From NCBI GenBank assembly GCA_964481735.1, contig CAYZWR010000001.1:29300-93299 (forward strand): a DNA stretch of 64,000 bases, read 5' to 3'. A program made the position numbers and the translations under genes. Shown piece after piece: positions 13,983 through 58,506 of the stretch. Origin of the DNA: an uncultured Thermoanaerobaculia bacterium. Its GTDB lineage: Bacteria; Acidobacteriota; Thermoanaerobaculia; Multivoradales; JAGPDF01. Below the pieces are notes generated by a model. The model was given only the letters and a program-made list of their open reading frames with translations. It was not told where the DNA came from and searched no databases. Within the stretch, counting starts at the first letter, position 1, and each line of letters opens with the position of its first letter.

Positions 13983-14001
13983 CCGGCGTCCCTTGGCCGC
14001 G

Positions 14002-30886: not shown

Positions 30887-31532
30887 GGACCACCGCCAGG
30901 GCGATGCAGGCGCAGCAGATGGCGAACGGCACCAGCACGGCCGCCAGCGCCTTGCCTTGGCTCGTGCGATGCATGGCGGCGAGGCCGAGCGTGTAGAGGA
31001 CGATCGACCAGACGATCGAGATCAGTCCGCCGGCGAACGGAACGAGGGAGGCGAGCTGCGCCACCGAACCGTAGGAGAGCGCGCGAATCGTCCCCTCGAA
31101 GCCGGTGGCGGACTCGCGGGTTCCGCCGAAGAGCATCAACGCCAGGTGCACCACGCCGCCGACCAGGAAGAGGCCGATCAGGACGAAGATCGGCGCGACG
31201 ATCATCTGGACGACGAGGCCGAGGGTCGAGCCCGCGAAGTGGAGCGCCCCACTCCCCTCCGCGCCGCTCGGCAGGAAGGGCAGGAAGGTCCAACCGAACG
31301 CGAACTGCCAGACGCTCTGGATGATCGCCCCGGCCCACGAGATCAGGACCGCGAAAGCGATCGGACTCACCAGGTCGCCGCGCCGGCGGGCACGCTCGTA
31401 ACCCTCACCGGGCGCGGTGACGAAGAGGCGGACGGTCTCGACGAGCGCGGTGAGGAAGCCGAGCCGCGCGCGATCTTCCCAGGGGACCGGCGCACCGGCC
31501 GGGACCGGAGGCGGAGCCAACGGTTCGCTCAT
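30831..31532 (-). CDS. Yip1-domain family membrane protein
   Basis: Pro-rich N-terminus MSEPLAPPPVPAG, then five predicted TM helices. Confidence 0.6.
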   Translation of the reverse strand: MSEPLAPPPVPAGAPVPWEDRARLGFLTALVETVRLFVTAPGEGYERARRRGDLVSPIAFAVLISWAGAIIQSVWQFAFGWTFLPFLPSGAEGSGALHFAGSTLGLVVQMIVAPIFVLIGLFLVGGVVHLALMLFGGTRESATGFEGTIRALSYGSVAQLASLVPFAGGLISIVWSIVLYTLGLAAMHRTSQGKALAAVLVPFAICCACIALAVVLVFGSIAALVAGAAAGAN

Positions 31533-31557
31533 CGTGCCAGCTCGGCCGGGGGCGCGA

Positions 31558-31914
31558 TCAGAACTTGTCGGCGAAGTCCGACAGGCCGGGGATGATGAAG
31601 CGCTGGCCGTTGACCGCCTTGACGATCGACAGGATGGTGACGATGAGGATCGGGATCCAGAGGAAGAGCGAGATGATGCTGGTCACGCACCCGACGCCGG
31701 GAACGAAGGACAGGATGGTGAAAACGACGAAGATCGCGATCCAGGCGAAGAACTGCACCAGGCCGTGCTTGGCGTGCCACTGGACTTCCTTGTCGTTCTT
31801 CTCGGTGAGCAGCGGAATGAGCGCCAGGAGCCCGAGGTAGGCGAGCACGAGCATCAGCGTGCGGTTACCCGAATCGGCGGCGGGCGGGGGCGGCGGAACT
31901 TTGGGTTCGCTCAT
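31558..31914 (-). CDS. DUF4870-family small membrane protein
   Basis: MSEPKVPPPPPA N-terminus, LAYLGLLALIPLL…VQWHAKHGLVQ motif, GAGGAG RBS. Confidence 0.6.
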   Translation of the reverse strand: MSEPKVPPPPPAADSGNRTLMLVLAYLGLLALIPLLTEKNDKEVQWHAKHGLVQFFAWIAIFVVFTILSFVPGVGCVTSIISLFLWIPILIVTILSIVKAVNGQRFIIPGLSDFADKF

Positions 31915-32026
31915 CGGAAACGTCTCCTCGATCGAGATCGGAAGCGACAGTCGTCGGTCTTGAACTCATCGAAGTGTACACCCCGCACCGAGGGCGGACA
32001 AGAGATGCGCGGCGCATCCGCGCGGC

Positions 32027-32617
32027 TCAGGCGCGTGGCGCGATGCCGAGCTCGGCGAGCGCCGCGTCGAGCTCGGCGCGCGCGCGCTCGGCGACCCGCA
32101 CCACGAGCTCCGCCTCCTCGCCGTAGCGTTCGGCGACCAGCTCGATGTCCGGCGGGCGGAGCAGCCGCTTGACCGTTCCGACGCGCGCGAAAGGGACCGG
32201 CAACGTCAGCTCGCGGCCCGGCAGCTCGCGTCGCGTCGGCAGGCGCGCCACCGCCTCGTGCAGCGCGCCGGCATAGGCCCGCGCGAGCCCTCCCTTGCCC
32301 AGCTTGGTGCCGCCGAACCAGCGCAGCACCGCCGCCACGACCCCGGTGAGCTCGGCGCCACGCAGCACCGCGAGCATCGGCTGTCCGGCGGTGCCCGACG
32401 GCTCGCCAGCGTCGGCGCCCCGCTCGGCTGGCGGCCAGCCGATTCGCCAAGCGAAACAGCAATGGGTGGCATCGGGAAAACGGCGGCGCAGCGCGTCGAC
32501 CCAGGCCTGCGCTTCGGCGACCGTCGCCGCGGGCGCGACGTAGGCGAAGAAACGCGAGCCGCGGTCGCGCAGCTCCGCCGCGCTCTCGGCGGTGGGGAGG
32601 TGATAGCCCTCGCTCAG
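32027..32617 (-). CDS. yigZ: IMPACT/YigZ family protein
   Basis: SRFFAYV…HCCFAWRIG…GEPSGTAGQPML…RWFGGTKLGKGGLARAY motifs; no canonical in-frame start near expected N-terminus (CTG at 32617 placeholder). Confidence 0.55.
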   Translation of the reverse strand: MSEGYHLPTAESAAELRDRGSRFFAYVAPAATVAEAQAWVDALRRRFPDATHCCFAWRIGWPPAERGADAGEPSGTAGQPMLAVLRGAELTGVVAAVLRWFGGTKLGKGGLARAYAGALHEAVARLPTRRELPGRELTLPVPFARVGTVKRLLRPPDIELVAERYGEEAELVVRVAERARAELDAALAELGIAPRA

Positions 32618-33759
32618 CGCCCGGCTCCGCCGCCGAGCCGGTCGAGCGTCGTCTCGTAGAGCTGGCGGTAGCGCGCCACGATCGCCGCCTCGGAGAAGCG
32701 CTCGAGCGCTCCTGCTCGCCCGGCGAGCGCGAAGCGGCGCTGCCGGTCGGGGTCGGAGAGCAGGGCGATCGCCCCCTCGGCCATCCCCGCCACGTCGCCG
32801 ACCGGGAAGAGCAGGCCGTCGATCCCGTGGCGCACCACCTCCGGAAGGCCGCCCGCCAGGGTGGCGATGACCGGCACCTCGCAGGCCAGCGCCTCGAGCG
32901 CGGCGAGTCCGAACGACTCGCTCTCCGAAGGCAGCAGGAAGAGATCGGCGCCGACCAGCACCTCCTCGATCGGCGCCATGTTGCCGAGGAACGTCACCCC
33001 CGCGCAGCAACCGAGCTCGCGGCAGCGCTGCTCGAGGCGCGCCCGCTCGGGTCCGTCGCCCACGAAGAGCAGATGCGCCGGCAGGCGCTCGCGGACCTTG
33101 AGAAAGACCTCGAGCACGTCCATCGCCCGTTTGACCGGCCGGAAGTTCGAGACGTGCATCAGGATCTTCTCGCCGGGCGGCACCCAACGGCGCGCCCCCG
33201 GGAGGTGGCGTGCCGCCTCGTAGCGCCGCGGGTCGATGAAGTTCGGGATCACCTCGATCGGCCGCTCCTCGACGCACAGCTGGTGCACCGTCGCGGCGCG
33301 CAACGACTCCGAGACCGCGGTCACCGCGTCCGAAGCGAGCACCGCCCAGCGGGTCGTCTCGAGATAGGACGGGTCGTTGCCCACCAGCGTGACGTCGGTG
33401 CCGTGCAGCGTGGTGACGACACCCAGCGGCCGCGGCGCGAGCATCAACTTGGCGAGATTGGCCGACACCGCGTTGGGGACCGCGTAGTGCGCGTGCAGCA
33501 GGTCGAGCCGCTGGTGGCGCGCCACCTCGGCCATCTTCGAGGCCAGGGCGAGCGAGTAGGGGGGATACTCGAAGAGCGGATAGTGCGGGACGACGACCTC
33601 GTGGTAGTAGAGGTTGGCATCGGCCAGGGAGAGGCGGGAGGGGAGCGCGTAGGAGAGGACGTGCACCTCGTCGCCGCCCGCGGCGAGCGCCATGGCGAGC
33701 TCGGTCGCGACGATTCCCGAACCGCCCCAGGTGGGATAGCAGCTGATGCCGATGCGCAT
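32614..33759 (-). CDS. bshA: N-acetyl-alpha-D-glucosaminyl L-malate synthase (bacillithiol glycosyltransferase)
   Basis: MRIGISCYPTWGGSGIVATELA N-terminus and overall GT4 layout closely parallel BshA (YpjH). Confidence 0.85.
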   Translation of the reverse strand: MRIGISCYPTWGGSGIVATELAMALAAGGDEVHVLSYALPSRLSLADANLYYHEVVVPHYPLFEYPPYSLALASKMAEVARHQRLDLLHAHYAVPNAVSANLAKLMLAPRPLGVVTTLHGTDVTLVGNDPSYLETTRWAVLASDAVTAVSESLRAATVHQLCVEERPIEVIPNFIDPRRYEAARHLPGARRWVPPGEKILMHVSNFRPVKRAMDVLEVFLKVRERLPAHLLFVGDGPERARLEQRCRELGCCAGVTFLGNMAPIEEVLVGADLFLLPSESESFGLAALEALACEVPVIATLAGGLPEVVRHGIDGLLFPVGDVAGMAEGAIALLSDPDRQRRFALAGRAGALERFSEAAIVARYRQLYETTLDRLGGGAGR

Positions 33760-33766
33760 GTCGCTC

Positions 33767-34489
33767 CTAGCGCAGTCCGCGCGGCAGAAGTCCCCACGGG
33801 TCGGCCACCGCGAGCGGCCCGCCGCTCCAGAACGGCTCGCCGAGCTCGGCGCCCACCAGGTTGCCGTAGTGCCGCGCTCGCCCCTCGACCGCCAGGCGGA
33901 ACTCGCGCGAGGCGACCTTGGTCCGCGGTCCGGGTGCCTCGACGCCCCCGGCGGCGGCCACCTGGCTCGCGTAGGCGTCGAGCGCCGCCGCCTTCACCGC
34001 CCAGGTCGCGGTCACGTCGACCACGAACGCGGGCAGGAACCCGTCGTGCTGCATGTAGCCGAAGAGCGCCGCCGGCCGATGGGGAGCTCCGTTGCCGCGC
34101 CGGGCGAGCCCGGCATAGAAGCAGGCGTCGGCCACCAAACGGTGGGCCCGCCCATGATCGGGGTGACGGTCGGCGGGGGTCGGCCCCAGGACCAGCTCGG
34201 GGCGCAGCCGCCGGAGCTCGGCGATCAGCGCCTCCTCCTCGGCCGGCCCGTGGCGCAGGGCGCCGTCGCCGCAGTCGAGGAAGGCGAGCTCGACCGCCCC
34301 CAGGATCTCGGCGGCCCGTTCCGCCTCGTGACGGCGCGCCTCGACCGTGCCACGAGTGCCCGCCTCGCCGCGCGTCAGGTGCAGGATTCCGACCCGCCGG
34401 CCGCTCCGCGCGAGCAGCGCGACGGTCGCGCCACACCCCAGCTCGACGTCGTCCGGGTGCGCTCCGATCGCCAACACGTCGACCGTCAT
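33767..34489 (-). CDS. bshB1: N-acetyl-alpha-D-glucosaminyl L-malate deacetylase (LmbE/PIG-L family)
   Basis: LAIGAHPDDVELGCG zinc-binding motif; immediately upstream of bshA. Confidence 0.8.
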   Translation of the reverse strand: MTVDVLAIGAHPDDVELGCGATVALLARSGRRVGILHLTRGEAGTRGTVEARRHEAERAAEILGAVELAFLDCGDGALRHGPAEEEALIAELRRLRPELVLGPTPADRHPDHGRAHRLVADACFYAGLARRGNGAPHRPAALFGYMQHDGFLPAFVVDVTATWAVKAAALDAYASQVAAAGGVEAPGPRTKVASREFRLAVEGRARHYGNLVGAELGEPFWSGGPLAVADPWGLLPRGLR

Positions 34490-34557
34490 CCGGCCACCTC
34501 CTCGTCGCGGCCATGCTAAGGCGGCGTTGGCGCCACGGCAACCGGCCGGTCCGGCGC

Positions 34558-34578
34558 GCGAACCGTCCGCCGGTTCGC
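34558..34578. promoter_or_regulatory. perfect palindrome GCGAACCG-N5-CGGTTCGC in bshB1 / MBL divergent promoter region
   Basis: 8-bp inverted repeat arms read directly from sequence; candidate operator. Confidence 0.3.
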
Positions 34579-34611
34579 ACGTAAGTAGGAATCACGCTCC
34601 CGGGAGGCTCC

Positions 34612-35571
34612 ATGCCGCGCTTCGCCCCGCTCGTCGTCGTCGCTGGTATCTGCCTCGGCGCCCCTTGCTCCGCCGCCGAGGAGCTCGCCCCCGGGATCAC
34701 GCTGCTCGCCGGGGAGTTCGTTCCCGGGCGGCAGCCCGACGGCAACACCCTGGTGCTCGCCGCGCCGGAGGGGCTGATCGTGGTCGACAGCGGGCGCCAC
34801 GTCGCGCACACCCAGGCGATCGTCGCCTGGGCGCGCGCCGCCAAGCGGCCGGTGGCGGTGGTGGTCAACACCCACTGGCATCTCGACCACATCGGCGGCA
34901 ACGCGCTGCTGCGCCGGGAGTACCCCGGGCTGCAGGTGGTGGCGAGCGGCGCGCTCGAAGCGGCGCTCGGCGGCTTTCTCGCCGGCTATCGCCGCCAGCT
35001 CGAGGGGATGCTCGCCGGCGACCTCCCGGCCGACCGCGCCGCGCAGTTCCGGGCCGAGCTGGCTCTCCTCGACGCCGCCCCGGCGCTCGCTCCCGACCAG
35101 GTCGTCACGGCGGGCGGGGCGCGCCGCCTCGCCGGGCGCGCGCTCGAGCTCGGGCTCGAACGGCGGGCCGCGACCGCCGGCGACGTCTGGCTGCTGGATC
35201 CCGAGACCCGGACCCTCGTCGCGGGGGACCTGGTGACCCTGCCGGTGCCCTTCCTCGACACCGCCTGCCCGGCGGGCTGGCTCACCGCCCTCGACCACCT
35301 GGCGGCGGTCGACTTCGTCCGCCTCGTTCCGGGGCACGGCGCGCCGCTCGACCGCGCCGGTTTCGCGCGCTACCGCTCGGCGTTCGCCAACCTGCTCGCC
35401 TGCGCGGCCCGCGAGGTGCCCGTCGCCTCCTGTGCCGACGGCTGGCTCGGTGATCTCGGCGAGCTCCTCCCGGCGGCGGAGCACCCCTTCACCCGCGAGC
35501 TGCTCGACTACTACGTGGGCAACGTGCTGCGCGGCGACCCGCAGGCGATCGCCGCGCGTTGCGCCGGCTAG
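34612..35571 (+). CDS. secreted MBL-fold metallo-hydrolase
   Basis: Signal peptide; NTHWHLDHIGG (HxHxDH) motif. Confidence 0.8.
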   Translation: MPRFAPLVVVAGICLGAPCSAAEELAPGITLLAGEFVPGRQPDGNTLVLAAPEGLIVVDSGRHVAHTQAIVAWARAAKRPVAVVVNTHWHLDHIGGNALLRREYPGLQVVASGALEAALGGFLAGYRRQLEGMLAGDLPADRAAQFRAELALLDAAPALAPDQVVTAGGARRLAGRALELGLERRAATAGDVWLLDPETRTLVAGDLVTLPVPFLDTACPAGWLTALDHLAAVDFVRLVPGHGAPLDRAGFARYRSAFANLLACAAREVPVASCADGWLGDLGELLPAAEHPFTRELLDYYVGNVLRGDPQAIAARCAG

Positions 35572-35593
35572 GCTTCGGCCGAAGGTCCGTCGG

Positions 35594-36622
35594 TCAGGGC
35601 GTGATGAACCCCTCGAAGATCGCGTCCCAGGTCAGGTAGGGGTCCCCCGCCGGAGCCGCGGAGTTGAACGAGAAGGCGTAGATCTGGGTGTCGTTGTAGA
35701 CGCTCGGAATCTCCCACATCGAAGCCCAGCCGGCCACCTCGTCGGCGACCGTGAACAGGTTGACCACGTGCGGCAGCGTCACCGTGGTGTCAGCCAGCTG
35801 CGCTCCCGTCTCGTCGTACCGCCGGTAGGTGTACTCCGTCGCGCAGCCCGCCGTCACGCAGAGCGCGGAGGGCCCTCCGGTCTCGTGCACCGTCCAGGCG
35901 AAGACGACCAGCCGGCTCGACCCGGTGAGTGGCACCGAGCCGAAGGTGCGCGTCTTGACGCGATACACCGTGTGCGAGGCGTCGCCGTCGCACGCGACTT
36001 CGCCGACCAGTTGCGCCGCGCAGGTCCGAGCGTCGACATCGATCTCCTCGCGGCCGTCCGGGACCTCCCACTGGTAGAAACCGTGGAGGAAGTTGTCGCC
36101 CGTGGTACCGACGTATTCGATCGGCACCATCGAGATGCCGTTCGCGCTCCCTTCCTGCAGCCGCACGTAGTAGATGTAGCCCTCGAGGTAATTCGCGGTT
36201 CCGAAGGGATAGGCGAGGTCCTGCGGCGTGAGTGCCGTCGCCGCCGTGACGACGTCGAAGGTGACGAACCCGCGATAGAAGGCCCCCTGGGTCAACGCGG
36301 CCTTGACGCCCGCGGTCTGCAGGGCGATCAGGTCGTACATCGAGGTGCTCCAGCTCTCCAGGCTGCCCAGCGAGAGGTTGCCGTTGAACACCGGCTCCCC
36401 GTCGATGTCCCAGACCTGATAGTGCACGTTGACCGAGGCCATGTAGACGTTGTGCACCACCAGCAAGGTGTTCTCCACATGGGTCGCGCTGTCGATACCG
36501 ACCTCGAAGAACGGGACGAGCAGAGTGGCTGCCGGAACGTGATCGGGGGTCCCGGCGATGCCGTAGGCCACGCCGGCGCCGAGCAGCGCGGCGAGCGCCA
36601 TGACAACCATTGCCTTCCGCAT
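35594..36622 (-). CDS. hypothetical secreted protein
   Basis: Signal peptide MRKAMVVMALAALLGAGVAYG; 342 aa, Cys pairs, no recognised family. Confidence 0.5.
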   Translation of the reverse strand: MRKAMVVMALAALLGAGVAYGIAGTPDHVPAATLLVPFFEVGIDSATHVENTLLVVHNVYMASVNVHYQVWDIDGEPVFNGNLSLGSLESWSTSMYDLIALQTAGVKAALTQGAFYRGFVTFDVVTAATALTPQDLAYPFGTANYLEGYIYYVRLQEGSANGISMVPIEYVGTTGDNFLHGFYQWEVPDGREEIDVDARTCAAQLVGEVACDGDASHTVYRVKTRTFGSVPLTGSSRLVVFAWTVHETGGPSALCVTAGCATEYTYRRYDETGAQLADTTVTLPHVVNLFTVADEVAGWASMWEIPSVYNDTQIYAFSFNSAAPAGDPYLTWDAIFEGFITP

Positions 36623-36790
36623 GGTGTTCCCTCCGTGGGAGGGCTCGCGGAGTGCTGGCCAGAGGCGGGATGCCGGGCCGCCTCGCGAGCCCGGAGTTTC
36701 GAAGATCGCTCTTGTCGCTGGTCTTCGGGTGGATTGTACTGCCGGGAGCCCCCCTCCGGGGTAGAGCGTCTCGCTGGGCGGGGGTGGAGC

Positions 36791-38866
36791 TCAGGCGTCG
36801 CTCTTCGCCCGCCGGGCGTCGAGGTAGACCCCGACCGCGAGCGCCAGGAACAGAGCGAAACCGAGCCAGTTCGACCACTCGCCCAGCCAGGCGCCGAAGC
36901 CGCCCCAGGTGGTCAGGTCGGGGATCAGCGTCCGCTTCGTCGAGTCCTCGAAGAACCGGAGCAGCGCGGTGCCAACGCCGACCAGCGCGCCCCCTGCGAT
37001 GAAGCCCGAGGCGACCAACGTGCCGCGCTCGTGGCGGGCCGACGCGAGCCGTTCGTCCTTCGACGAGCGCTTGACCAGCCAGGCGACCGCCGCGCCGACG
37101 ACCAGCGGCGAGTTCAGGTCCATCGGCAGGTACATGCCGAGCGCGAAAGCCAGTCCCGAGATGCCGCAGAGCTCGGCCGCCACCGCGAAGACCGCGCCGA
37201 TCGCATAGAGGAACCAGGGGGTTCCGCCGTCGCCCATGACGCCCTGGAGCACCGCGGCCATGGCGTTCGGCTGCGGCGCCGGCAGCGGGTTGAGGTGCGC
37301 GGCCGAGGGTGCGAAGCCGTAGACCTTGGCCATCAGGAGGATCACCGCCGTGGTCGCGGCCGAAGCGACCGCCGCGCCCGCCAGGTTCGCCAGCTCGATG
37401 CGGCGCGGGGTCGCCCCCAGCCAGTAGCCGATCTTGTACTGAGTGACCAGCGAGCCACTCATCGAGAGCGCCGTGCAGACCACCCCGCCGATCAGCAGCG
37501 TCTGCAGCATGCCGTCCTGGCCCGAGAGCCCCATCGCCGAGAGCGCCACCGCGGTGACGATCAGCGTGGTCAGCGTCATGCCCGAGATCGGGGTGATCGA
37601 GATCATCGCGATCGCCCAGGCCGAGACCGCGGCGAACAGGAAGGCGATCACCAGGGTCAGACCGGTCGCCGCCCCGGCGATGCCGGTCGCCCCGTCGAGC
37701 CCGGCGAGGACCGAGAAGCGGAAGTAGAGGAAGATCGCGACTCCGGTCGCGGCGATCCCCAGCAGCACGGTCGACATGGGCAGGCTCCGGTCGGTGCGCT
37801 CGGCCGCCGCTGCTCCGCCACCCCCCTTCGCCAGCCGGGCCACCTCGCTGAGCGCCTGGCGGGTCGCCTGCGCGATCACCGGCGACATCTTGAGGATCGA
37901 CAGCACCCCGGCGGCGAAGATGCCACCGATGCCGATCGGCCGCACGTAATCGAAGAAGATGTCCTCGGCGGCCATCTGCGCGAGCGGCACCGCGCCGCCC
38001 AGAATGGGCGCCGCGATGGACTGACCGAGCCAGGCGAAGAGCGGCACCAGCACCAGGAAGGAGACGAACGAGCCGGCGAGGATGATCGCCGCGTAGTCGA
38101 CCCCCATGATGTAGCCCAGGCCGAAGACCGCCGCCGAGGTGTTCATGGTGAACACCGCCTTGTAGCGCTCGGTGAAGCGGGCGAGCGCGCCGATCGATCC
38201 GGTCGAGAAGACCTCCGCCCAGCCCTTCATCGCCGGGCCGATGAAGTCGAAGGCCGCCGCGGCGAGCGCCGAAACCGAGAGGATCGCGGCGCTCTGGCCG
38301 CCGCGCTTGCCGGCGACCAGGATCTCGGTGGTGGCGCGCGCCTCGGGGTAGGGGAGCTTGCCGTGCAGCTCGCGCACGAAGTAGCGCCGGAACGGCGCCA
38401 GCAGGAAGACGCCGAGGATCGCGCCGAGGAGCGGCACGAAGAAGATCTGGAAGAAGGAGGAGCGGCTCTCCAGGCCGAGGATGTAGATCGCCGGCATGGT
38501 GAACACCGATCCGCCGGCGATGATCCCCGACGTCGCGCCGATCGCCAGCACCTGGACGTTCTCGAGCAGCGTCGAGGCGCGCGCCTTGAGGATGCGCACC
38601 GCGAGCACCGAGAACCCGATGGCGAGGATCGAGATCGGGATCGCCGATTCGATCCCCTGCCCCAGCTTCAGCGCGATGTAGGTCGCCGCCGCCGAGAAGA
38701 CCACCGACCAGAAGAGTCCCTGCAGGATCGCGCGGAGGGTCAGCTCCGGGGCGGCAGCGGCCGCCGGGACGATGGGAGCGTAGCTCTCGCCGGGAGCGAG
38801 CTCGCGGAAGGCGTTGTCGGGCAGGCGGACGTCGTCGGGTGCGACCGGGGGCTCGGAAGCGGACAT
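36791..38866 (-). CDS. OPT-family oligopeptide transporter
   Basis: 691 aa, ~16 TM helices, OPT-superfamily-like conserved segments. Confidence 0.8.
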   Translation of the reverse strand: MSASEPPVAPDDVRLPDNAFRELAPGESYAPIVPAAAAAPELTLRAILQGLFWSVVFSAAATYIALKLGQGIESAIPISILAIGFSVLAVRILKARASTLLENVQVLAIGATSGIIAGGSVFTMPAIYILGLESRSSFFQIFFVPLLGAILGVFLLAPFRRYFVRELHGKLPYPEARATTEILVAGKRGGQSAAILSVSALAAAAFDFIGPAMKGWAEVFSTGSIGALARFTERYKAVFTMNTSAAVFGLGYIMGVDYAAIILAGSFVSFLVLVPLFAWLGQSIAAPILGGAVPLAQMAAEDIFFDYVRPIGIGGIFAAGVLSILKMSPVIAQATRQALSEVARLAKGGGGAAAAERTDRSLPMSTVLLGIAATGVAIFLYFRFSVLAGLDGATGIAGAATGLTLVIAFLFAAVSAWAIAMISITPISGMTLTTLIVTAVALSAMGLSGQDGMLQTLLIGGVVCTALSMSGSLVTQYKIGYWLGATPRRIELANLAGAAVASAATTAVILLMAKVYGFAPSAAHLNPLPAPQPNAMAAVLQGVMGDGGTPWFLYAIGAVFAVAAELCGISGLAFALGMYLPMDLNSPLVVGAAVAWLVKRSSKDERLASARHERGTLVASGFIAGGALVGVGTALLRFFEDSTKRTLIPDLTTWGGFGAWLGEWSNWLGFALFLALAVGVYLDARRAKSDA

Positions 38867-38875
38867 GGACGCATT

Positions 38876-39910
38876 CTAGGGACTCGTCCGCGCCGCCGTC
38901 CCCCCGTCGCGGGGTGGGGATCCGGGGCCGGTTGCGCTCGGCTGGCCGCGGCGGCGCGGCCGTCGCAAGCAGAGGTAGACCCCGGCGAGGACCGCGGCGC
39001 CGCCGAAGAGGAGCCCGGGGGCCGGCAGGCGGTCGAACCAGAGCCACTCGAAGAAGAGCGCGAGCGGCGGATTGAGGAAGACGAAGGCGGCGGTGTTGCT
39101 CGAGGTCAAGCGGGCGAGCGCCTCGTACCAGAGCCAGTAGCCGAGCACCGTGCAGGCCAGGGCGAGGAAGAGCGTCGCACCGAAGCGCTCGAATCCCCAC
39201 CGCCCCACCTTCTCGTGCAGACCTTGGTCGAACGCGGCGAGCGGCAGCGCCGGCAGGCTCCCCAGGCCGAGCACCAGGAAGGTGAGATGGAGCGGCGAGC
39301 GTCCGCGAAGCAGGGGTTTCGAGAGCACCGTGTAGATCGCCCAACTCGCCGGGGCGAGCAGCATCACCCCGGCGTCGGCGAGGTAGGCGACTTCGACCGC
39401 CCGTCCGGCGCCGTGCACCACCACGACGTAGACCCCGGAGAAGGCGAGGGCGAGGCCGCCGAGCTTCGCCGCGGCGGGACGCTCCTCGCCGAGCGCCAGG
39501 GCGAGCAGGTAGGTGAGCACCGGGTTGAGCGTGGTGATCAGGGCGCCGGCTCCGGCGCTCACCCGCTGGTGCCCGGTCCCGAACGCCAGGTTGTAGCCCC
39601 AGACGGCGAGCAGCCCGAGCGCCGGGACGAGCGCCGGGTGGGCGGCGAGAATCGTCCGGGCCTCGCGCCGCGCGCCCGGCAGGGCGGCGAACCAGCCGAG
39701 ACAGAAGAGCGCCACCGGCACGAAACGCGCCTCGACGAACTCCCGCGCCGTCAAACGCTCCCCGGCCGGCACCACGTCGCCCACCAGCGCGCGCGTCGCG
39801 GTGAACGAGTTCGACCAGATGAGAAAACAGACGATCAGGAGGAGATAGGGACCGCGCGCTCCGGGGCGCGCCGGCGCGTGAATCCGGACGGTCCCTGGCG
39901 GCTCCCGCAC
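38876..39910 (-). CDS. DMT-superfamily (EamA-like) transporter
   Basis: 10 TM helices in two EamA-like halves; GTG start. Confidence 0.7.
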   Translation of the reverse strand: MREPPGTVRIHAPARPGARGPYLLLIVCFLIWSNSFTATRALVGDVVPAGERLTAREFVEARFVPVALFCLGWFAALPGARREARTILAAHPALVPALGLLAVWGYNLAFGTGHQRVSAGAGALITTLNPVLTYLLALALGEERPAAAKLGGLALAFSGVYVVVVHGAGRAVEVAYLADAGVMLLAPASWAIYTVLSKPLLRGRSPLHLTFLVLGLGSLPALPLAAFDQGLHEKVGRWGFERFGATLFLALACTVLGYWLWYEALARLTSSNTAAFVFLNPPLALFFEWLWFDRLPAPGLLFGGAAVLAGVYLCLRRPRRRGQPSATGPGSPPRDGGTAARTSP

Positions 39911-39920
39911 GGCGCGTCCG

Positions 39921-41528
39921 TCAGCGGGTCGGATCGATCAACGACAGACGGCGCGGGTCGAGGTCGAGCTGGTCGAGCAGCGCTGCGCCGAAGCGCTCGC
40001 CGTAACGTCCCGGAAAGTAGGCCGCCGAGAGCGCCCGCTCCTGCGGCGCGCCGTCCGGCAGGAGCGCGTCGCGAAGCTGCGCGAAGCGGCGGCCGACCAG
40101 CTCGTCGCGCCGTCCGGCCGCCGCTGCCACCTTCGAAGCGAAAGCCTCGAGCGCGCGCTCGATCGTCTCGCGGGTCTTCTCGAGCGGTCTCTCGAGCGTC
40201 GGGTCGAGGGCCTGCGCGGGCTCGGCCAGGCTGGCCACCTCGCCCAGGATGCGCTCGCGCACCGGAGCGACGAAGCCGCCGCCGGAGCGCTCGGCCAGCC
40301 GACGCTCGGCGAGGGCGGCGTCGGCGAGGAGCTCGTCCAGGGTGAGCCCCAGCTCCGCCAAGTGCTCCGCCTGCCGGGGGTCGAGCACGAGGGCGCGGGG
40401 CCGGAGCGCGACCGCGGGCCGCGCTGCGTCGAGCAGGGCGTAAGCCGGCGCCGCCTGGGGGAGGTAGGCCATCTCGCCCGGGCCGAGCAGCAGCAGCGTC
40501 GTGCCGAGCACCGCGTCCTGAATCGCCGGCCGGGCGAGGACCCCGGGCGAGACCGCGGCCGGGTTCCCCTCGAGGGTCTCCAGGAGCTCGGCGAGCGGCA
40601 GCTCGCCGTCGAGGCCGCGCAGCGCGAAGCCCGCCTCGCCGCGCCATTCGATCCGGCGGCGCGCGCCGGCGCGCAGCAGGAAGAGCGGCGAGGCGTTGGG
40701 CTGTGGCGCGACCTGCAGCCCGTGGCCGCGCGCCAGGATCGCCGCCTCGCGCTCGGCGACGGCGCGAGCGAGCTCGGCGCGGCGCTCGACCAGCCGCACG
40801 AGGTGCGGCCGCTCGGCCTGTTTGAGCTCGGGCAGCTGGGCGTCGAGCAGCAGCGGCGCGCGTCCGCCGAAGGTCGCCGCGAGCTGCCGCGCGAAGGCCT
40901 CGCCGAAGCGCGCCTCGGGGCGCCACCAGGTGCCCAGCTTCTCCAGCCAGGCGCGGAACCACTCCGCCGGATAGAGCGCCGCGAGCTCCGCGAGCAGCAC
41001 GCCGACCTGCGGCCCCACCGTGCGCAGCCCCACCGGCGCGAGCGGCGCCGGGTCCTCGCCCAGGCCGAGGCGCCGCAGGCCGTCACTGGCGGGAAACGTC
41101 GCGGTGGCGACCTCGGCGAAGTCGTGGTCCTCGGTTGCCATCCAGAAGACCGCCACCGCCGGCCGCCCGGCCGCCTCGATCGACTCCGCCCAGCGCACCG
41201 CCGCAGCCGCCTTGACCAAGGCGAGCAACGGCCCGCCGAAGAGTCCGGTCTGTTGCCCGGTGGCCACCACCGCGGTCGCCGGATCGGCGAGCTTCGCCGC
41301 GAGCTCGGCTGCGCGCGGGTGGCCGTAGCCCGCGTTGGCGGTCGCGAGGCCCGACGCCAGCGCTTCGCGCCCCGGCGACGGAGCTCTCTCGGCGGGCTGG
41401 ACGCCAGGCGCCAGGAAGCCGAGCGGCGCGAGGAGGTCCAGGTCGCGACCTGCGACGAGCGTCCCGGCGAGGCCACCGAGCGGCGCGTCGAGGCTCTGGG
41501 CCACCGACCTGGCGCGCTCCGCGGTCAC
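39921..41528 (-). CDS. bshC: bacillithiol biosynthesis cysteine-adding enzyme BshC
   Basis: AVVATGQQTGLFGGPLLALVKAAAAV and FWMATEDHDFAE motifs characteristic of BshC (YllA); GTG 41528 after GGAGGG, GTGA overlap with upstream gene stop. Confidence 0.8.
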   Translation of the reverse strand: MTAERARSVAQSLDAPLGGLAGTLVAGRDLDLLAPLGFLAPGVQPAERAPSPGREALASGLATANAGYGHPRAAELAAKLADPATAVVATGQQTGLFGGPLLALVKAAAAVRWAESIEAAGRPAVAVFWMATEDHDFAEVATATFPASDGLRRLGLGEDPAPLAPVGLRTVGPQVGVLLAELAALYPAEWFRAWLEKLGTWWRPEARFGEAFARQLAATFGGRAPLLLDAQLPELKQAERPHLVRLVERRAELARAVAEREAAILARGHGLQVAPQPNASPLFLLRAGARRRIEWRGEAGFALRGLDGELPLAELLETLEGNPAAVSPGVLARPAIQDAVLGTTLLLLGPGEMAYLPQAAPAYALLDAARPAVALRPRALVLDPRQAEHLAELGLTLDELLADAALAERRLAERSGGGFVAPVRERILGEVASLAEPAQALDPTLERPLEKTRETIERALEAFASKVAAAAGRRDELVGRRFAQLRDALLPDGAPQERALSAAYFPGRYGERFGAALLDQLDLDPRRLSLIDPTR

Positions 41529-44500
41529 TCCGTGCCCTCCGGAGCTCCCGCGAGATCGAATCCCGGCTCGGGCAGATAGCCCTGGGCTTCGATCTTCTCC
41601 CCGCTGAACCGCGCCCATGCGGGGAGACCGGGCGTGTAGCTCTTCGTCATCTCGTGCAGCTCGAGCGCCGAGTTGGCGACGAAGAGATAGACCAGGCGTC
41701 CCTCGCCGAACGGACTGGGCAGCGCCAGGAAGAGCCCTTCGTCCGAGCGGCCGTGGCTCCTGCCCTCGAAGCGGAAGTAACCGTCGCCCAGCGTCGCGGG
41801 AGCCCGCTCGCCCCACGCCGCCACCAGCCGCGCGACCAGGGCGTTGTCGCGCGGGCCGCCGAGCAGCACGAGGTCGCGGGTCGCGAGCTGCTCCGCGCTC
41901 ACCTCGGCGTCCTTCACCACCGCAACGAGCTGCTCCGTGAAGTTGTCGGCGAGCGTGGTCTGGAAGCGCAGCGCCAGGGTGCGCTGCGCCTCGTCGGCGC
42001 GGCTGGTGCCGTGCACGATGAGGGTCTCCGGCCAACGCTCGGTGACGTGCGGCCAGGCCGCCCAGTACTGGCGCGCGACCGGGACGTCGTTGCCGGGGTC
42101 GAAGCGGACGGCGAGCGGCCTTTCCGCCACGTCGAAGGTCGCGACGCCGTGGGCGTCGTCGAGGATCATCGGGTGACGGACGCGCGCCGTCGCGGTCTCG
42201 ATCTCGAGACTGGTCGCGAGTGGATAGACGTTGCCCTCCGGCTGGTCGACCGCGACCGTCACCCGCCACGCCTTGCCCTTCCTCGCGTAGGTGACGCTCG
42301 GCGTGGGGGCCGGGAAGCCGGTGCGCTCGAGCCAGGGGGCGACGATCGGCGCCACGTCACGGCCCGCCACCTCGCGCGCGACGGCGAGGAAGTCGGCGGT
42401 CGCGACGCTCTTGCCGGCGAAGCGTTCGTGGAGCGTCCGCATCATCTTCAGGAAGCGCTCGTTGCCGAGCTGGAGCCGGAGCTGGTGGAGGGCGAAGGTC
42501 CCCTTGACCCGCGCCACCCGATACGGCGCGTAGCGGGTGTACGAGCGCTCCGCCTCGATCGCGGGGAGATCCGCCTCGCGCTCGAGCGTCGCCTGGAGGA
42601 GGACGTTCTGGCGGGCGAGCGCGTCGGCCAACGCCTTGGCGGCCTTCGCTTCGTCGTCCGGCAGGTCGTGGAGCAGCTGCCAGTACCCCGCCGTGCCGCT
42701 CGCCAGCCAGTGGTCGGCGGCGCTCGCCGGGAAGAGGGTCCCCTGCCAGAGCTGCTTCGCTTCCACCCGGCTCCGGTCCTTCACCTTCGCGAGGTCGAGC
42801 CTGGGCGACTCGGTCTGCTCCTCGAGCGGTGCGAAGCGCCCGGCGGCCTTCGCCTCGTCGAGCTTCGCCTCGAGCCAGAGCGGCGTGACCGCGGTGTAAC
42901 CCAGCGTCAGGTGCGGCTGGGCGCCCGGCAGGTCGGGCATCCGCCGCGCGCCCTTGGCGGGGAACTTCTCGCGCAGCGTGACCTTGCCATGGTGCGCCCA
43001 GAAGACCAGCCGTTCGGCCATCTCCGAGGTGGTGATCTTGCCGTCGCAGGCGTGCGCGAGGTTGATCGGCGAGGTGGCGAAGAGACGCGCCACCGACGGG
43101 ACGTCGATCCGCCCCTTCTCCCGGGCGTAGTAGGCGTTGAACGCCAGGTCGCGGTTCCAGGGGGCGAACACCGGATCGTAGGGGGCGCCGTTCGGCTGCA
43201 CCGCGTACTCGGCGCGCACGTCGGGGTCGCGCGCGTTGTTGTTGGCCCACAGGAAGCCGGGGGTGCCGAAGGGGTTCTCGCCCGAGCGCCAGAGCTTCAG
43301 CTTCTCGGTGCCGAGCAGGCAGATCGCGGTCTCGTCCGTCTTGATGTCGGCCATCGGCCAGTCGTTGGTGTAGAGGCCGTTGTTCCGCTCGGCGAGAATG
43401 GCGACCACTTCGTCGATCGTCCGGCCGTACTGCACGGCGCGGCGGATGCGGTCGCTCATCGGCGCGCCGTCCGGATTCCACGGCGTCTGCGCGACCGTCG
43501 TCTCGCCGACCACCAGGCCGGCGCCGTTCAGGTAGAAGTCGGTGCCCGAGTGGATGCCGCCGGGGAAGGTCTGGAAGACGACCCGCTCACCGCTCGTCGG
43601 CACGAGATCGAGCAGGACGTTGAAGTGGACGCCGGTGTAGCCGCTCCACATGAAGATCTGCCCGAAGACCACCCGGCCGTCGGCGGTCGCCGGTCCGGTC
43701 GCGGCGAGCGCCGAGCACTTGTGCGAGCCGTCGGGAATGGCGAGCTCCTCCTCGGCAGTGAGGAAGCTCCGTCCGGTGAGGGCGTGTGGCAGCGTGGCGA
43801 GCCCGCTCTTCAGATAGTCGACGTCGATCGAGGAGTTGAGCGTGACGACGTCGAGGAAGTCGATCGCCTTGCCCTCCCAGGTCGCCCCGGCCGCGGCCGC
43901 CCCGTCGGCGATGCCGCGCATCTCGGTCAGCAGCTCCTCGGAGAAGCCGCGCAGCATCGTGGCGTCGGCGAGCGTGCGCAGCGCGCTCCAACCCGCCGCC
44001 GGGTCCTTGCCACTCGCCACCTGGGCGAGCTTCGCCAGGTAGGCCGCGATCTCGTCGGCCAGCAGATAGCCGTGCTGGTAGCCACGGGCGTAGGGCTCGC
44101 CCTCGACGTGCAGCAGGATCCAGCCCCCCTGCTCGGTGCGGAAGCCGCGGTCGGCCCAACGCACGCTCTCGAGCGGCACGAAGTCGGCGACGTCGGTGAC
44201 CTCCTCGAGCTCGAGATCGTCGAACCAGGCGGTGCCGCGCGCCGTGCCGTTCCAGCCCAGCGCGACGCGCACCCGATCCTCGGCGCGGGTGGCGACGAAG
44301 GGCATCTCGACCGCCGTCCAGTCGCGCGTCGCGCCGACCGCCGGCGAGTGGTTGGTGAAGGGAAAGGAGAGCATCGAGAGGGTGGCCGGAACGGCCGTGG
44401 GATAGCGCGCCTGTGGATCGGAGAGCGCGCCTTCGGTGCGGATCCAGGCGCGCAGACGATAGACGTGGCCGACTTCCAGCCGCACCGGCGGCGAGAGCAG

Positions 44501-44764
44501 GGCGAGCGAGGCGTCCTGCGGGTTCTCCAGCCGGAGGCTGGCGCTGCCGCCATGGGCGAGCGCGGCATCGCGCGTCGCGCGGGCCGCCCCCTCCGGCGTC
44601 GCGCTCTCGATCGTCCAACCCGCCGGCAGCTCTCCCGGCGCCGCCGCCTCGAAGCCGCCGTTCGGCACCTCGAGCGCGGTTGCCGCGGGCGCGACCGCCG
44701 CCAGCCCAAGCCACGCCGCCAGCCACCCGCTCCCCACCATTCCGCGTCGCGCTCCATCCACCAT
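41525..44764 (-). CDS. large secreted multidomain protein (CBM-like N-domain, Ntn-hydrolase-like Cys domain, helical C-terminal region)
   Basis: ATG 44764 after GAGGAG; signal peptide MVDGARRGMVGSGWLAAWLGLAAVAPAATA; 1079 aa; candidate nucleophile in SHKCSALAATG. Confidence 0.65.
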   Translation of the reverse strand: MVDGARRGMVGSGWLAAWLGLAAVAPAATALEVPNGGFEAAAPGELPAGWTIESATPEGAARATRDAALAHGGSASLRLENPQDASLALLSPPVRLEVGHVYRLRAWIRTEGALSDPQARYPTAVPATLSMLSFPFTNHSPAVGATRDWTAVEMPFVATRAEDRVRVALGWNGTARGTAWFDDLELEEVTDVADFVPLESVRWADRGFRTEQGGWILLHVEGEPYARGYQHGYLLADEIAAYLAKLAQVASGKDPAAGWSALRTLADATMLRGFSEELLTEMRGIADGAAAAGATWEGKAIDFLDVVTLNSSIDVDYLKSGLATLPHALTGRSFLTAEEELAIPDGSHKCSALAATGPATADGRVVFGQIFMWSGYTGVHFNVLLDLVPTSGERVVFQTFPGGIHSGTDFYLNGAGLVVGETTVAQTPWNPDGAPMSDRIRRAVQYGRTIDEVVAILAERNNGLYTNDWPMADIKTDETAICLLGTEKLKLWRSGENPFGTPGFLWANNNARDPDVRAEYAVQPNGAPYDPVFAPWNRDLAFNAYYAREKGRIDVPSVARLFATSPINLAHACDGKITTSEMAERLVFWAHHGKVTLREKFPAKGARRMPDLPGAQPHLTLGYTAVTPLWLEAKLDEAKAAGRFAPLEEQTESPRLDLAKVKDRSRVEAKQLWQGTLFPASAADHWLASGTAGYWQLLHDLPDDEAKAAKALADALARQNVLLQATLEREADLPAIEAERSYTRYAPYRVARVKGTFALHQLRLQLGNERFLKMMRTLHERFAGKSVATADFLAVAREVAGRDVAPIVAPWLERTGFPAPTPSVTYARKGKAWRVTVAVDQPEGNVYPLATSLEIETATARVRHPMILDDAHGVATFDVAERPLAVRFDPGNDVPVARQYWAAWPHVTERWPETLIVHGTSRADEAQRTLALRFQTTLADNFTEQLVAVVKDAEVSAEQLATRDLVLLGGPRDNALVARLVAAWGERAPATLGDGYFRFEGRSHGRSDEGLFLALPSPFGEGRLVYLFVANSALELHEMTKSYTPGLPAWARFSGEKIEAQGYLPEPGFDLAGAPEGTE

Positions 44765-44857
44765 CGCCAGTCTCCTCGCTCCCCTGCCGGGCGATGGTAT
44801 CAACCGATCTCGTAGGATTCGCCCGCCGGCGCAAGAAACGCCGGGGGAGAACCGCTC

Positions 44858-45607
44858 ATGGAATGGCTGGCCGACCCACAGGTCTGGATCGCGTTCGCGA
44901 CCCTGCTGCTGCTCGAAGTGGTCCTGGGCATCGACAACATCGTCTTCATCTCGATCCTGGCCGGGAAGCTCCCGGCCGCCGAGCAGGCGCGAGCCCGCAC
45001 CACCGGCCTCGCCCTCGCCATGGTGATGCGCGTCCTGCTGCTCCTCTCGATCGCCTGGATGGCGCGCCTGACCGCGCCCCTCTTCGCGGTGGTCGACTAC
45101 GAGATCTCGGGACGCGACCTGATCCTGATCGCGGGCGGGCTCTTCCTGCTCGCCAAGTCGACTTTCGAGATCCACGACAAGCTGGAAGGGGAGGAGGGGG
45201 GCCAGTCGGCGCGCGTCGCCGCCTCGTTCTCCGCGGTCATCGTGCAGATCCTGCTGCTCGACATCGTCTTCTCGCTCGACAGCGTCATCACCGCGGTCGG
45301 CATGACCGACAAGATCCCGATCATGGTGGCGGCGGTCGTCGTCGCGGTGATCCTCATGATGTTCTTCGCCGGTCCCATCTCGCGCTTCGTCGAGCAGCAC
45401 CCGACGGTGAAGATGCTCGCCCTCTCGTTCCTCCTGCTGATCGGCGTGACCCTGGTGGCCGAGGGGCTCGAGTTCCACATCCCCCGGGGTTACGTCTACT
45501 TCGCGATGGCCTTCTCGCTCGGGGTCGAGCTCTTGAACCTGCGGCTGCGCCGCAAGCCCGCGCCGGTCCACTTGCGAGCCCGCTACGCGGAGGAGGAGAA
45601 GCGCTGA
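44858..45607 (+). CDS. TerC-family integral membrane protein
   Basis: LGIDNIVFISILAGKLP and SLDSVITAVGMTD TerC signature segments. Confidence 0.85.
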   Translation: MEWLADPQVWIAFATLLLLEVVLGIDNIVFISILAGKLPAAEQARARTTGLALAMVMRVLLLLSIAWMARLTAPLFAVVDYEISGRDLILIAGGLFLLAKSTFEIHDKLEGEEGGQSARVAASFSAVIVQILLLDIVFSLDSVITAVGMTDKIPIMVAAVVVAVILMMFFAGPISRFVEQHPTVKMLALSFLLLIGVTLVAEGLEFHIPRGYVYFAMAFSLGVELLNLRLRRKPAPVHLRARYAEEEKR

Positions 45608-45657
45608 CGCCGCGGGCGCTCCGGGGAAGCGGCGCACCCGTTAGAATGCGAGGTTCG

Positions 45658-46641
45658 ATGTTCCGCCTCGGCTCCGTCCCGGTCGATCCCCCGCTCGTCC
45701 TCGCCCCCATGGCGGGGGTGACCGACCGCGACTTCCGCCTGATCGTCCGGCGGATCGGCGGCGTGGGCCTGGTGACCATGGAGTTCATCGCCTCGAAGGC
45801 GCTGGTGCGGGGAATCCGCCGCACGCTCGACCTGATGAGCTACGCCCCCGAGGAGCGTCCGATCTCGATCCAGATCTACGGTTCCGACCCCGCCACCATG
45901 GCCGAGGCGGCGCGCCGGGTCGAGGAGGTGGGCGCCGACGTCTGCGACATCAACATGGGCTGCCCGGCCAACAAGGTGCTCAAGGGTTGCTCGGGCTGCG
46001 CCCTGATGGGTGACTTGCCGCTCGCCGAGCGGATCGTCTCGACGGTGCGCCAGGCGATCTCGATCCCGCTCACCGTCAAGTTCCGCCTCGGGCTCGACGC
46101 CGATCGGCGGAACTACCTCGAGCTGGGCAGGATCTGCGAGGCGAACGGCGTGCAGGCGGTGGCGCTCCATGCCCGCACCGCGCGCCAGATGTTCTCGGGC
46201 GACGCCAAGGCGCAATGGCCGGAGATCGCGCGCCTGAAGGAGACGCTGGCGATCCCGGTGATCGGCAACGGCGACGTGCGCGAAGCGGCCGACGCCGTCG
46301 CGATGCTCCGTGCGACCGGTTGCGACGGGGTGATGATCGGCCGCGCCGCGACCAAGAACCCCTGGATCTTCCGCCAGACGGCCGACCTGCTCGACGGACG
46401 GGCGCCGGAGGAGGCGACGCTCACGGCGCGCCGCGACCTCATTCTCGGGCATCTGCGGCTGGTCGCCGAGCGCGAGGAGTCGAAGTGGGCGCTGCACAAG
46501 CTGCGCAAGTTCACCGGCTGGTACACCCACGGCATCCCGCACGGCCGCGAGCTCCGGCAGCGCATCAACGAGCTCGCCGACGTTGCCTCCTTCCTCGACG
46601 CGGTCGAGGACTTCTTCGACACCCTGGAAGCTGCGGCGTGA
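45658..46641 (+). CDS. dus: tRNA-dihydrouridine synthase
   Basis: LAPMAGVTD, DINMGCP, catalytic Cys region, TIM-barrel Dus layout. Confidence 0.9.
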   Translation: MFRLGSVPVDPPLVLAPMAGVTDRDFRLIVRRIGGVGLVTMEFIASKALVRGIRRTLDLMSYAPEERPISIQIYGSDPATMAEAARRVEEVGADVCDINMGCPANKVLKGCSGCALMGDLPLAERIVSTVRQAISIPLTVKFRLGLDADRRNYLELGRICEANGVQAVALHARTARQMFSGDAKAQWPEIARLKETLAIPVIGNGDVREAADAVAMLRATGCDGVMIGRAATKNPWIFRQTADLLDGRAPEEATLTARRDLILGHLRLVAEREESKWALHKLRKFTGWYTHGIPHGRELRQRINELADVASFLDAVEDFFDTLEAAA

Positions 46642-47090
46642 ACCGTCACCAGGTGACGGTCGCCCTCCCGCCCGACGAGGCCGCGGCGGCGCTCGCCCAC
46701 GCGGCCGCGGAGTGGGGCGCCGAGTGGGAGAGCGACGAGCGCGGCGGGCGTCTCGTCCTGCCGGTGGTCTTCGGGCTGCGCCGCGGGGTGCTCGTGGGGC
46801 GGGTCGAGATCGCCCGCGACGGCGGCAAGTCCCGCCTCACCTGGCAGACCGAGGAGAGTCACCTCGAGGTGCAGCGCGCCGCGGTGGGCGTGCTCGCCGG
46901 CGCGGCCCTGGTCCTCGTTCCGGCCCTGGCCTGGCCCTTCCACCCGCCGCTCATGGCGCTCCTGCCCTTCGCCGCCGTGGTGGGTCTCCTGGCCTATTGG
47001 CTGGTCCTCTCGCGGCTGCGTACCAGCGGACCAGAGGAGTTCTTCGCGACCCTCCAGCCCGCGGGGACGGGAATGCCGCCACCCGGGTGA
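46638..47090 (+). CDS. hypothetical protein with C-terminal TM helices
   Basis: GTG 46638 overlaps dus stop (GTGA); 150 aa. Confidence 0.4.
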   Translation: MNRHQVTVALPPDEAAAALAHAAAEWGAEWESDERGGRLVLPVVFGLRRGVLVGRVEIARDGGKSRLTWQTEESHLEVQRAAVGVLAGAALVLVPALAWPFHPPLMALLPFAAVVGLLAYWLVLSRLRTSGPEEFFATLQPAGTGMPPPG

Positions 47091-57798: not shown

Positions 57799-58506
57799 AT
57801 GACCGAGGCGACGCCCCGCTCGACCGCGCGCGAGTATGCCGAGGCCCTGCTGATCGCGGCGCTCTTCCTGCTGTTCACCAACACCTTCGTCATCAAGACC
57901 TTCTTCATCCCGAGCGGATCGATGGAGAACACGCTGCTGGTGGGGGACCACCTGTTCGTCAACCGGTTCATCTTCGGGCCGGCGGCGAGCGAGGCCGAGC
58001 GCTCGCTGCTCCCGCTGCGCTCCCCGCGGCGCGGCGACATCGTCATCTTCCGCTCGCCCGAGCGCCCGACGGTCGACCTGGTGAAGCGCCTCATCGGCCT
58101 GCCGGGCGACACCCTGCAGATCATCAGCAAACAGCTCTACGTCAACGGCCAGAAGGTCGCCGACGGTGGCTACGTCGAGCACAAGGACCCGCGCACCTTC
58201 CTCAATCGGCCCTACCTGTCCGAGCAGATGCGGCTGCGCGACAATTTCGGGCCGGTCACGGTGCCCGAGGGGCAGTACTTCTGCATGGGAGACAACCGCG
58301 ACTACTCCTACGACTCCCGCTTCTGGGGGACGGTGCCCGCGCACTATCTGAAGGGACGCGCTTTCGTCATCTACTGGTCCTTCGGCGGCGGCACCTCCGA
58401 CGGCACCTGGCGTGGCCTGCCCGCGAAGCTCAAGGAGATCGCCAACACCATCATCGGGTTCCCGACCAAGACCCGGTGGGCACGCACCTTCCACCTGCCA
58501 CGCTGA
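57799..58506 (+). CDS. lepB: signal peptidase I
   Basis: Box B SGSMENTL (Ser), box D KRLIGLPGD (Lys), box E GDNRDYSYDSRFWG. Confidence 0.9.
   Translation: MTEATPRSTAREYAEALLIAALFLLFTNTFVIKTFFIPSGSMENTLLVGDHLFVNRFIFGPAASEAERSLLPLRSPRRGDIVIFRSPERPTVDLVKRLIGLPGDTLQIISKQLYVNGQKVADGGYVEHKDPRTFLNRPYLSEQMRLRDNFGPVTVPEGQYFCMGDNRDYSYDSRFWGTVPAHYLKGRAFVIYWSFGGGTSDGTWRGLPAKLKEIANTIIGFPTKTRWARTFHLPR

Follow-up and report, generated by a model that had tools for sequence, protein, structure and literature searches.

A putative bacillithiol gene set in an uncultured Thermoanaerobaculia bacterium, probably split by a recent insertion

A stretch of 64,000 nucleotides from contig CAYZWR010000001.1 of an uncultured Thermoanaerobaculia bacterium, in the following called the window, is predicted to encode the full bacillithiol gene set, consisting of bshA, bshB1 and bshC, together within 9 kb. 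Based on a comparison with related loci, the ancestral operon of this class seems to have been bshC-bshB1-bshA-yigZ, divergent from dusB, so that the separation of bshC from bshB1 in the window would be a derived state that arose via a recent insertion, a reading to which we assign a probability of roughly 85%.

Bacillithiol genes of the window

The three genes of the putative pathway are located as follows:

32614..33759, minus strand: bshA, predicted N-acetyl-alpha-D-glucosaminyl L-malate synthase (GT4), 381 aa
33767..34489, minus strand: bshB1, predicted N-acetylglucosamine (GlcNAc)-malate deacetylase (LmbE/PIG-L fold), 240 aa
39921..41528, minus strand: bshC, predicted bacillithiol cysteine-adding enzyme, 535 aa, GTG start

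A preliminary description of this DNA, made from the letters and their open reading frames (ORFs), had proposed a complete bacillithiol pathway from sequence motifs and pointed to three hidden Markov models as a check. Running these models (TIGR03999, TIGR04001, and TIGR03998) resulted in scores over the cut-off for all three equivalogs, and matches in the PDB to the Bacillus enzymes agreed. Overall, the Pfam and NCBIfam scans took in about 60 ORFs of the window, which has a GC content of 72% and whose gene map was GC3-based.

For BshA, comparison with the TIGR03999 equivalog revealed 484.3 bits (cut-off 273.7), covering residues 1-372 of 375 model positions, while the MshA model reached 71.7 bits against a cut-off of 462.5 and other GT4 models stayed far under theirs. 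Its full-length PDB matches were 2jjm, 3mbo, and 5d00 (BshA of B. anthracis and B. subtilis; E about 1e-100), and its translation starts with MRIGISCYPTWGGSG and contains the EX7E motif ESFGLAALE. BshB1 reached 241.6 bits against TIGR04001 (cut-off 182.5), with competing models far under their cut-offs (BshB2, 35.9 against 195; MshB, 37.8 against 224; and also Mca), and it was matched to 6p2t (B. subtilis BshB1, 3e-33) and 2ixd (B. cereus BC1534, about 1e-33). It displays the metal-site motifs AHPDDVELGCG and, further on, HPDH; a BshB2 paralogue was not seen in the window. BshC scored 285.0 bits against TIGR03998 (cut-off 265.8), revealed the Pfam domains PF10079 and PF24850, as expected for a Rossmann-like domain and a C-terminal coiled coil, and matched 4wbd (B. 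subtilis BshC, 9e-31) over residues 53-514. It carries TGQQTGLFGGPLL and EDHDFAE, so that all motifs quoted in the preliminary description, namely the BshA start, the BshB1 motif AHPDDVELGCG, and those of BshC, are present in the translations. An alignment of 12 BshC sequences showed GQQxGLxGGPLL and TEDHD to be invariant, and the N-terminal length deduced from the GTG at 41528 agrees with that of 11 relatives; NCBI holds an identical 535-aa protein (P0001). BshC homologues whose source is named, together with a scan of genome contigs, assign the window to the Thermoanaerobaculia (Acidobacteriota).

Judging from family membership, the three proteins would have the corresponding enzyme activities: BshA would couple UDP-GlcNAc and L-malate, BshB1 would take off the acetyl group, and BshC would attach cysteine, so that the organism is expected to produce bacillithiol. 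Bdr/YpdA, bacilliredoxins, NmbA, or a specific Bst were not found among the scanned ORFs.

The operon in relatives and its split in the window

Two further features are needed for the comparison of gene order:

34490..39920, no strand: segment of 5.4 kb inserted between bshC and bshB1, four genes in place of the contiguous operon of relatives
44858..46641, plus strand: terC-family gene (PF03741) and dusB (TIGR00737), anchors for synteny at the other flank of bshC

The genomic context of BshC relatives was looked up, and 14 proteins of the window were compared by tblastn with 84 fetched loci. Thus, we identified loci in which a divergent dusB is followed by contiguous bshC-bshB1-bshA, mostly with yigZ, namely L001, L002/L003, L006, L009, L013, L014, L015, and L017, with BshC proteins 47-71% identical to that of the window. 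Their gene order runs from dusB over bshC-bshB1-bshA-yigZ-DUF4870 and further genes to a PDZ/GAF/GGDEF gene, an outer membrane protein gene, and a peptidyl-prolyl isomerase gene, and the genes flanking the locus of the window keep exactly this order. In these contiguous loci (for L002/L003, in L002), the bshC stop lies up to about 120 nt from the bshB1 start, with L002 displaying an overlap of 4 nt. The three genes are still contiguous in the distant loci L043, L068, and L069. Altogether, ten or more further genomes of the Thermoanaerobaculia harbor an undivided bsh cluster, in each case without a gene for the 1079-aa protein that precedes bshC in the window.

The altered arrangement was only detected in the window and its nearest relative, an uncultured Thermoanaerobaculia metagenome-assembled genome (L004/L005) whose BshC is 89-90% identical. 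Both harbor terC and the 1079-aa gene between dusB and bshC, while L006 has terC at that position without the large gene. On the contig of L004, bshC is followed by a gene for a drug/metabolite transporter (DMT) that is 94% identical to that of the window, and the contig then ends inside the next gene. The preliminary description had noted that bshC lies 6 kb away from the bshB1-bshA pair; though this position is correct, it goes back to genes inserted into an operon that was once contiguous, as it still is in the relatives listed above.

Loci L007, L008, L010, and L011 revealed a different insert of 1.0-1.4 kb at the junction of bshC and bshB1. The insert of L010 (11631-12926), the sole one of the four that was read, carries a gene for a membrane protein whose histidine motifs resemble those of fatty-acid hydroxylases. 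Because an unrelated gene occupies this junction in other lineages, it appears to be an insertion-prone spot.

In the proposed account, a large gene for a secreted C45/phospholipase-B-like protein would have entered between terC and bshC, overlapping the bshC start by 4 nt, and a block of four genes, encoding the DMT protein, an oligopeptide transporter (OPT), a secreted protein without assigned family, and, on the opposite strand, a protein with metallo-beta-lactamase (MBL) fold, would have entered between bshC and bshB1. After these events, bshC would probably share a transcript with the large gene and both transporter genes, and expression of bshB1-bshA-yigZ would then start from a new intergenic region of 122 bp.

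Several points weigh against this account. The derived arrangement was found in one other genome only, whose contig ends inside the insert, and the downstream half of the insert was seen only in the window. The transcription units are deduced from spacing alone, since a promoter scan of positions 31500-45000 revealed no sigma-70-like site anywhere; terminator-like sites in the same region occurred at chance level, with one plausible hairpin after yigZ (32023-32007). With regard to the pathway itself, BshC clears the curated TIGR03998 cut-off by just 19 bits. Moreover, in vitro reconstitution of BshC activity has not been achieved for any organism (PMC5790435), and for this reason the last step relies on genetics in Firmicutes and Chlorobi.

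Some of the compared loci showed additional features. L015 (CAXMQZ010000035.1) is labelled 'uncultured Polyangiaceae bacterium', yet displays a Thermoanaerobaculia-type locus of dusB and, divergent from it, bshC-bshB1-bshA-yigZ-DUF4870, with proteins 47-71% identical to those of the window, and mis-binning or horizontal transfer are possible. L043 harbors a gene for a Fur/PerR-like regulator (13400-13915) directly after bshC-bshB1-bshA, at the usual place of yigZ. Directly 3' of dusB, the window carries an ORF of 150 aa without family match (46638-47090, plus strand), and an unannotated gene of 150-159 aa is located at the same spot in L001, L002, and L004.

Genes next to bshC and the intergenic palindrome

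The genes surrounding bshC in the window are as follows:

41525..44764, minus strand: 1079-aa protein with signal-peptide-like N-terminus, a part resembling a carbohydrate-binding module (CBM), a C45/phospholipase-B-like N-terminal nucleophile (Ntn)-hydrolase core, and an M1-peptidase-like domain
38876..39910, minus strand: DMT-superfamily (EamA) transporter, PF00892 with two EamA repeats, 10 nt 3' of bshC
36791..38866, minus strand: OPT-family oligopeptide transporter, 691 aa, TIGR00733 with 215.1 bits (cut-off 182.5)
35594..36622, minus strand: protein of 342 aa with signal-peptide-like N-terminal segment, hydrophobic N-terminus
34612..35571, plus strand: MBL-fold hydrolase (PF00753) with signal-peptide-like N-terminus, divergent from bshB1

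The 1079-aa protein scored 108.1 bits against NF040521 (C45_proenzyme, cut-off 85) and 32 bits against the phospholipase-B-like family PF04916, and among PDB entries, PLBD2 as well as an M1-like metalloprotease gave weak matches. Its HKCS motif including C350, the expected nucleophile position, is invariant across 12 homologues. Thus, it resembles the C45/phospholipase-B-like Ntn hydrolases, which include mammalian PLBD1/2, in passing the family cut-off and in the invariant H-K-C-S at the self-cleaving nucleophile, but differs from them in a length of about 1,070 aa in its family, in the extra CBM-like and M1-like domains, and in a link to bacillithiol genes that is confined to the lineage of the window. 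An active metalloprotease in the M1-like region was rejected, as the HEXXH motif is missing. The family comprises more than 1,400 matches, mostly labelled hypothetical. Its homologues (P0121-P0240) are mainly from Acidobacteriota, with a few sources labelled Planctomycetota or Deltaproteobacteria.

The preliminary description had emphasized that bshC is translationally coupled to this large gene. The overlap is real: the GTG of bshC (41528-41526) overlaps the TGA of the large gene as GTGA, with GGAGGG 6 nt upstream, and both the overlap and the Shine-Dalgarno sequence are kept in L004, so that co-transcription and translational coupling are plausible in this lineage. The link is, however, lineage-specific, and nothing supports a functional connection of the extracytoplasmic hydrolase to the cytoplasmic BshC. 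Homologues of the large protein with 78%, 70%, and 58% identity are found in unrelated neighborhoods without bshC, and since bshC of other class members likewise occurs without the large gene, their adjacency points to insertion and not to a functional partnership.

On the other side of bshC, the DMT and OPT genes belong to the families given in the preliminary description. The spacing of the large gene, bshC, DMT, and OPT (-4, 10, and 9 nt) is close, and judging from the gaps of 10 and 9 nt, both transporter genes would now be carried by the bshC transcript. Every NCBIfam equivalog score of the DMT protein was far under its cut-off, and the 342-aa protein revealed no Pfam or NCBIfam match. 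The MBL-fold protein showed weak SoxH-related matches; a metagenome scan resulted in 80 homologue loci, the best 62% identical, none of which harbored any other gene of the window's locus.

Alternatively, the hydrolase, bshC, DMT, and OPT genes could form a module selected for its role in the economy of thiols or cysteine, in which the secreted hydrolase would cut extracellular peptides, OPT would import a cysteine source for BshC, and DMT would export bacillithiol or its conjugates. The close packing of the genes, the GTGA overlap and Shine-Dalgarno sequence conserved in L004, and an OPT score over the family cut-off fit this idea, as does a very weak match of DMT to the model of an exporter for O-acetylserine/cysteine (22.6 bits; cut-off 472). 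Hgt1, a yeast member of the OPT family, carries glutathione, which is a further point in its favor. In addition, a homologue of the large protein in L086 (10001-16657) is followed by genes for an M20 peptidase, a DinB_2 protein, and a peptide-binding protein. However, the adjacency is confined to two genomes of one genus-level lineage, while the class members with a contiguous bshC-bshB1-bshA do without the module genes and homologues of the large protein occur without a nearby bshC. Neither transporter can be assigned to a substrate, and the unrelated gene at the same junction elsewhere gives the site the look of an insertion hot spot. Altogether, we regard a selected module as unlikely and favor insertion, and the useful outcome is a negative one: the overlap of bshC with the gene of the large protein and the neighboring transporters should not count as a new thiol-linked system.

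The region between bshB1 and the MBL-fold gene, which would have arisen with the split, contains a perfect palindrome:

34558..34578, no strand: perfect 8-bp inverted repeat with 5-nt spacer, GCGAACCG-TCCGC-CGGTTCGC, in the 122-bp divergent bshB1/MBL region

Its distance to the bshB1 start is 69 nt and that to the start of the MBL-fold gene 34 nt, the repeat lying upstream of both. The preliminary description had suggested a redox regulator as its ligand, and an operator for such a regulator, acting on bshB1-bshA and/or the divergent MBL-fold gene, would suit a perfect 8+8 inverted repeat within a divergent promoter region, the more so as this promoter region is new since the split and some new regulation would be needed. 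Though the palindrome is present as described, its frequency is within chance expectation: hairpins with a perfect stem of 8 bp and a loop of 3-10 nt occur 65 times in the window, about one per kb at 72% GC, against a simulated Markov mean of 43 (range 28-72). Apart from that, no second copy beyond chance expectation was found in the 64 kb, even at three mismatches, no regulator gene is adjacent, and the fold of the intergenic RNA is not unusual (z = -1.1). An operator at this site is therefore rather improbable.

yigZ, published systems and further genes

The gene following bshA has the following location:

32027..32617, minus strand: yigZ (IMPACT family), probably starting at a CTG that shares bases with the bshA stop (CTGA)

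As given in the preliminary description, it belongs to the IMPACT family, with 109 bits against PF01205 (UPF0029/Impact_N, cut-off 27) and 31 bits against PF09186 (DUF1949, cut-off 23.7). The score against TIGR00257 was 137.3 bits, under the cut-off of 167.95, so that the profile scores support membership of the predicted protein in the superfamily, not in the equivalog. No in-frame ATG, GTG, or TTG was found from 32900 to 32378, and the first canonical start past the bshA stop, an ATG at 32377, would cost 80 conserved residues. Homology starts at a CTG (32617-32615) sharing bases with the TGA of bshA, the overlap reading CTGA, with GGAG 7 nt upstream. Counting the window, eight of ten scorable bshA-yigZ junctions display an in-frame NTGA, six of them CTGA, with ATGA in L006 and GTGA in L009; the sites are located at 32614-32617 in the window, 13532-13535 in L001, 13492-13495 in L002, 4156-4159 in L006, and 13456-13459 in L009, and further ones were found in L007, L010, and L011. 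Automated gene calls for L001 and L002 had picked downstream GTGs, truncating YigZ. Altogether, translation of yigZ seems to be coupled to bshA, via a CTG start that is conserved or via reinitiation.

With its NTGA overlap and its retention in the bshC-bshB1-bshA operon of most Thermoanaerobaculia, it is conceivable that yigZ is functionally tied to bacillithiol synthesis, one possibility being that attempts to reconstitute BshC in vitro failed for lack of YigZ, either as a protein partner or as a source of activated cysteine. The link is missing in three loci of the class, as yigZ is absent from the locus in L014 and L017 and not linked in L043, and outside the class a relaxed tblastn search of L023-L084 revealed no yigZ adjoining bsh genes. 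YigZ also occurs in organisms without bacillithiol. Because of these gaps, a specific role of YigZ is only a low-probability lead, and its conserved coupling to bshA gives a small hint on what BshC might need to work in vitro. A lesser version of the claim would be that yigZ represents a case of a conserved CTG initiation codon used via termination-reinitiation.

In comparison with bacillithiol synthesis in B. subtilis (BshA, BshB1/BshB2, and BshC), the same three enzyme families and catalytic motifs were found here, in this case in a Gram-negative-type member of the Acidobacteriota with 72% GC. While the B. subtilis genes bshB1-bshA lie in an operon that also holds mgsA, and bshC lies with panE (PMC5790435), the ancestral order here would be bshC-bshB1-bshA-yigZ. 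Bacillithiol genes were predicted in Acidobacteria genomes by Hiras et al. 2018 (PMC6282198) and again for Acidobacteriota in the 2025 study on NmbA (PMC12719100), which describes nmbA as missing from most Acidobacteriota with the pathway. The window agrees with these predictions in phylum and gene set, and no nmbA was seen in it either, so that a further lineage of the Acidobacteriota joins the predicted users of bacillithiol, consistent with the published surveys. Since such genes are published for Acidobacteria and the proteins of the BshC relatives, the matches being from Thermoanaerobaculia, already carry the name BshC at NCBI and JGI, the bacillithiol gene set in this lineage is a correct but ordinary annotation. 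The surveys give presence or absence only, and in the passages of PMC6282198, PMC5790435, and PMC12719100 located by keyword no statement of a class-wide bshCBA-yigZ operon or its disruption was found; both come from the present comparisons.

That all three are paralogues serving other purposes, namely a generic GT4, a deacetylase of the LmbE type, and a BshC-like protein, and that no bacillithiol is made, is highly improbable: the BshC score near its cut-off, a BshC reaction that has yet to be reconstituted in vitro, and the lack of Bdr/YpdA, bacilliredoxins, or a specific Bst among the scanned ORFs would fit, but BshA lies 210 bits over its cut-off and BshB1 is likewise over its own, with the competing models far under theirs, no genomic sign of a shared pathway is stronger than the class-wide clustering of the three genes in one operon, and in the test cases published in PMC6282198 thiol content was correctly predicted from gene content.

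Two groups of more distant genes had also been connected to bacillithiol in the preliminary description. The gene at 2295-2789, proposed to be of the DinB/YfiT class used as bacillithiol S-transferases, is indeed of the DinB family (PF05163, 35.5 bits; also PF12867), but matched the generic superfamily only: no bacillithiol-transferase model matched, the MST model was under its cut-off, the sole NCBIfam match was TIGR03083 with 20.7 bits against 50, and the gene is 30 kb away. The proposed cysteine supply by mtnA and a cystathionine-family enzyme found no support. With 401 bits against TIGR00512 (cut-off 279), mtnA is predicted to encode a true methylthioribose-1-phosphate isomerase of methionine salvage, and the adjoining Cys/Met pyridoxal phosphate (PLP) enzyme reached 500 bits for its family with every equivalog under cut-off, leaving its subfamily unassignable. 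Both genes are 12-14 kb from bshC, separated from it by signalling and ABC-transporter genes.

Further observations were made elsewhere in the window. An ORF of 475 aa (13993-15420, plus strand) combines an N-terminal antibiotic biosynthesis monooxygenase (ABM) domain with domains of phage tail sheath proteins (PF04984, PF17482). Further genes for a contractile tail were not recognized in its vicinity, and its TTG start may be over-extended. Moreover, two S26 signal peptidase genes are located in tandem at 57799-58506 and 58548-58979 (plus strand), the second of which is short (143 aa) and matched the family profile in two separate stretches.

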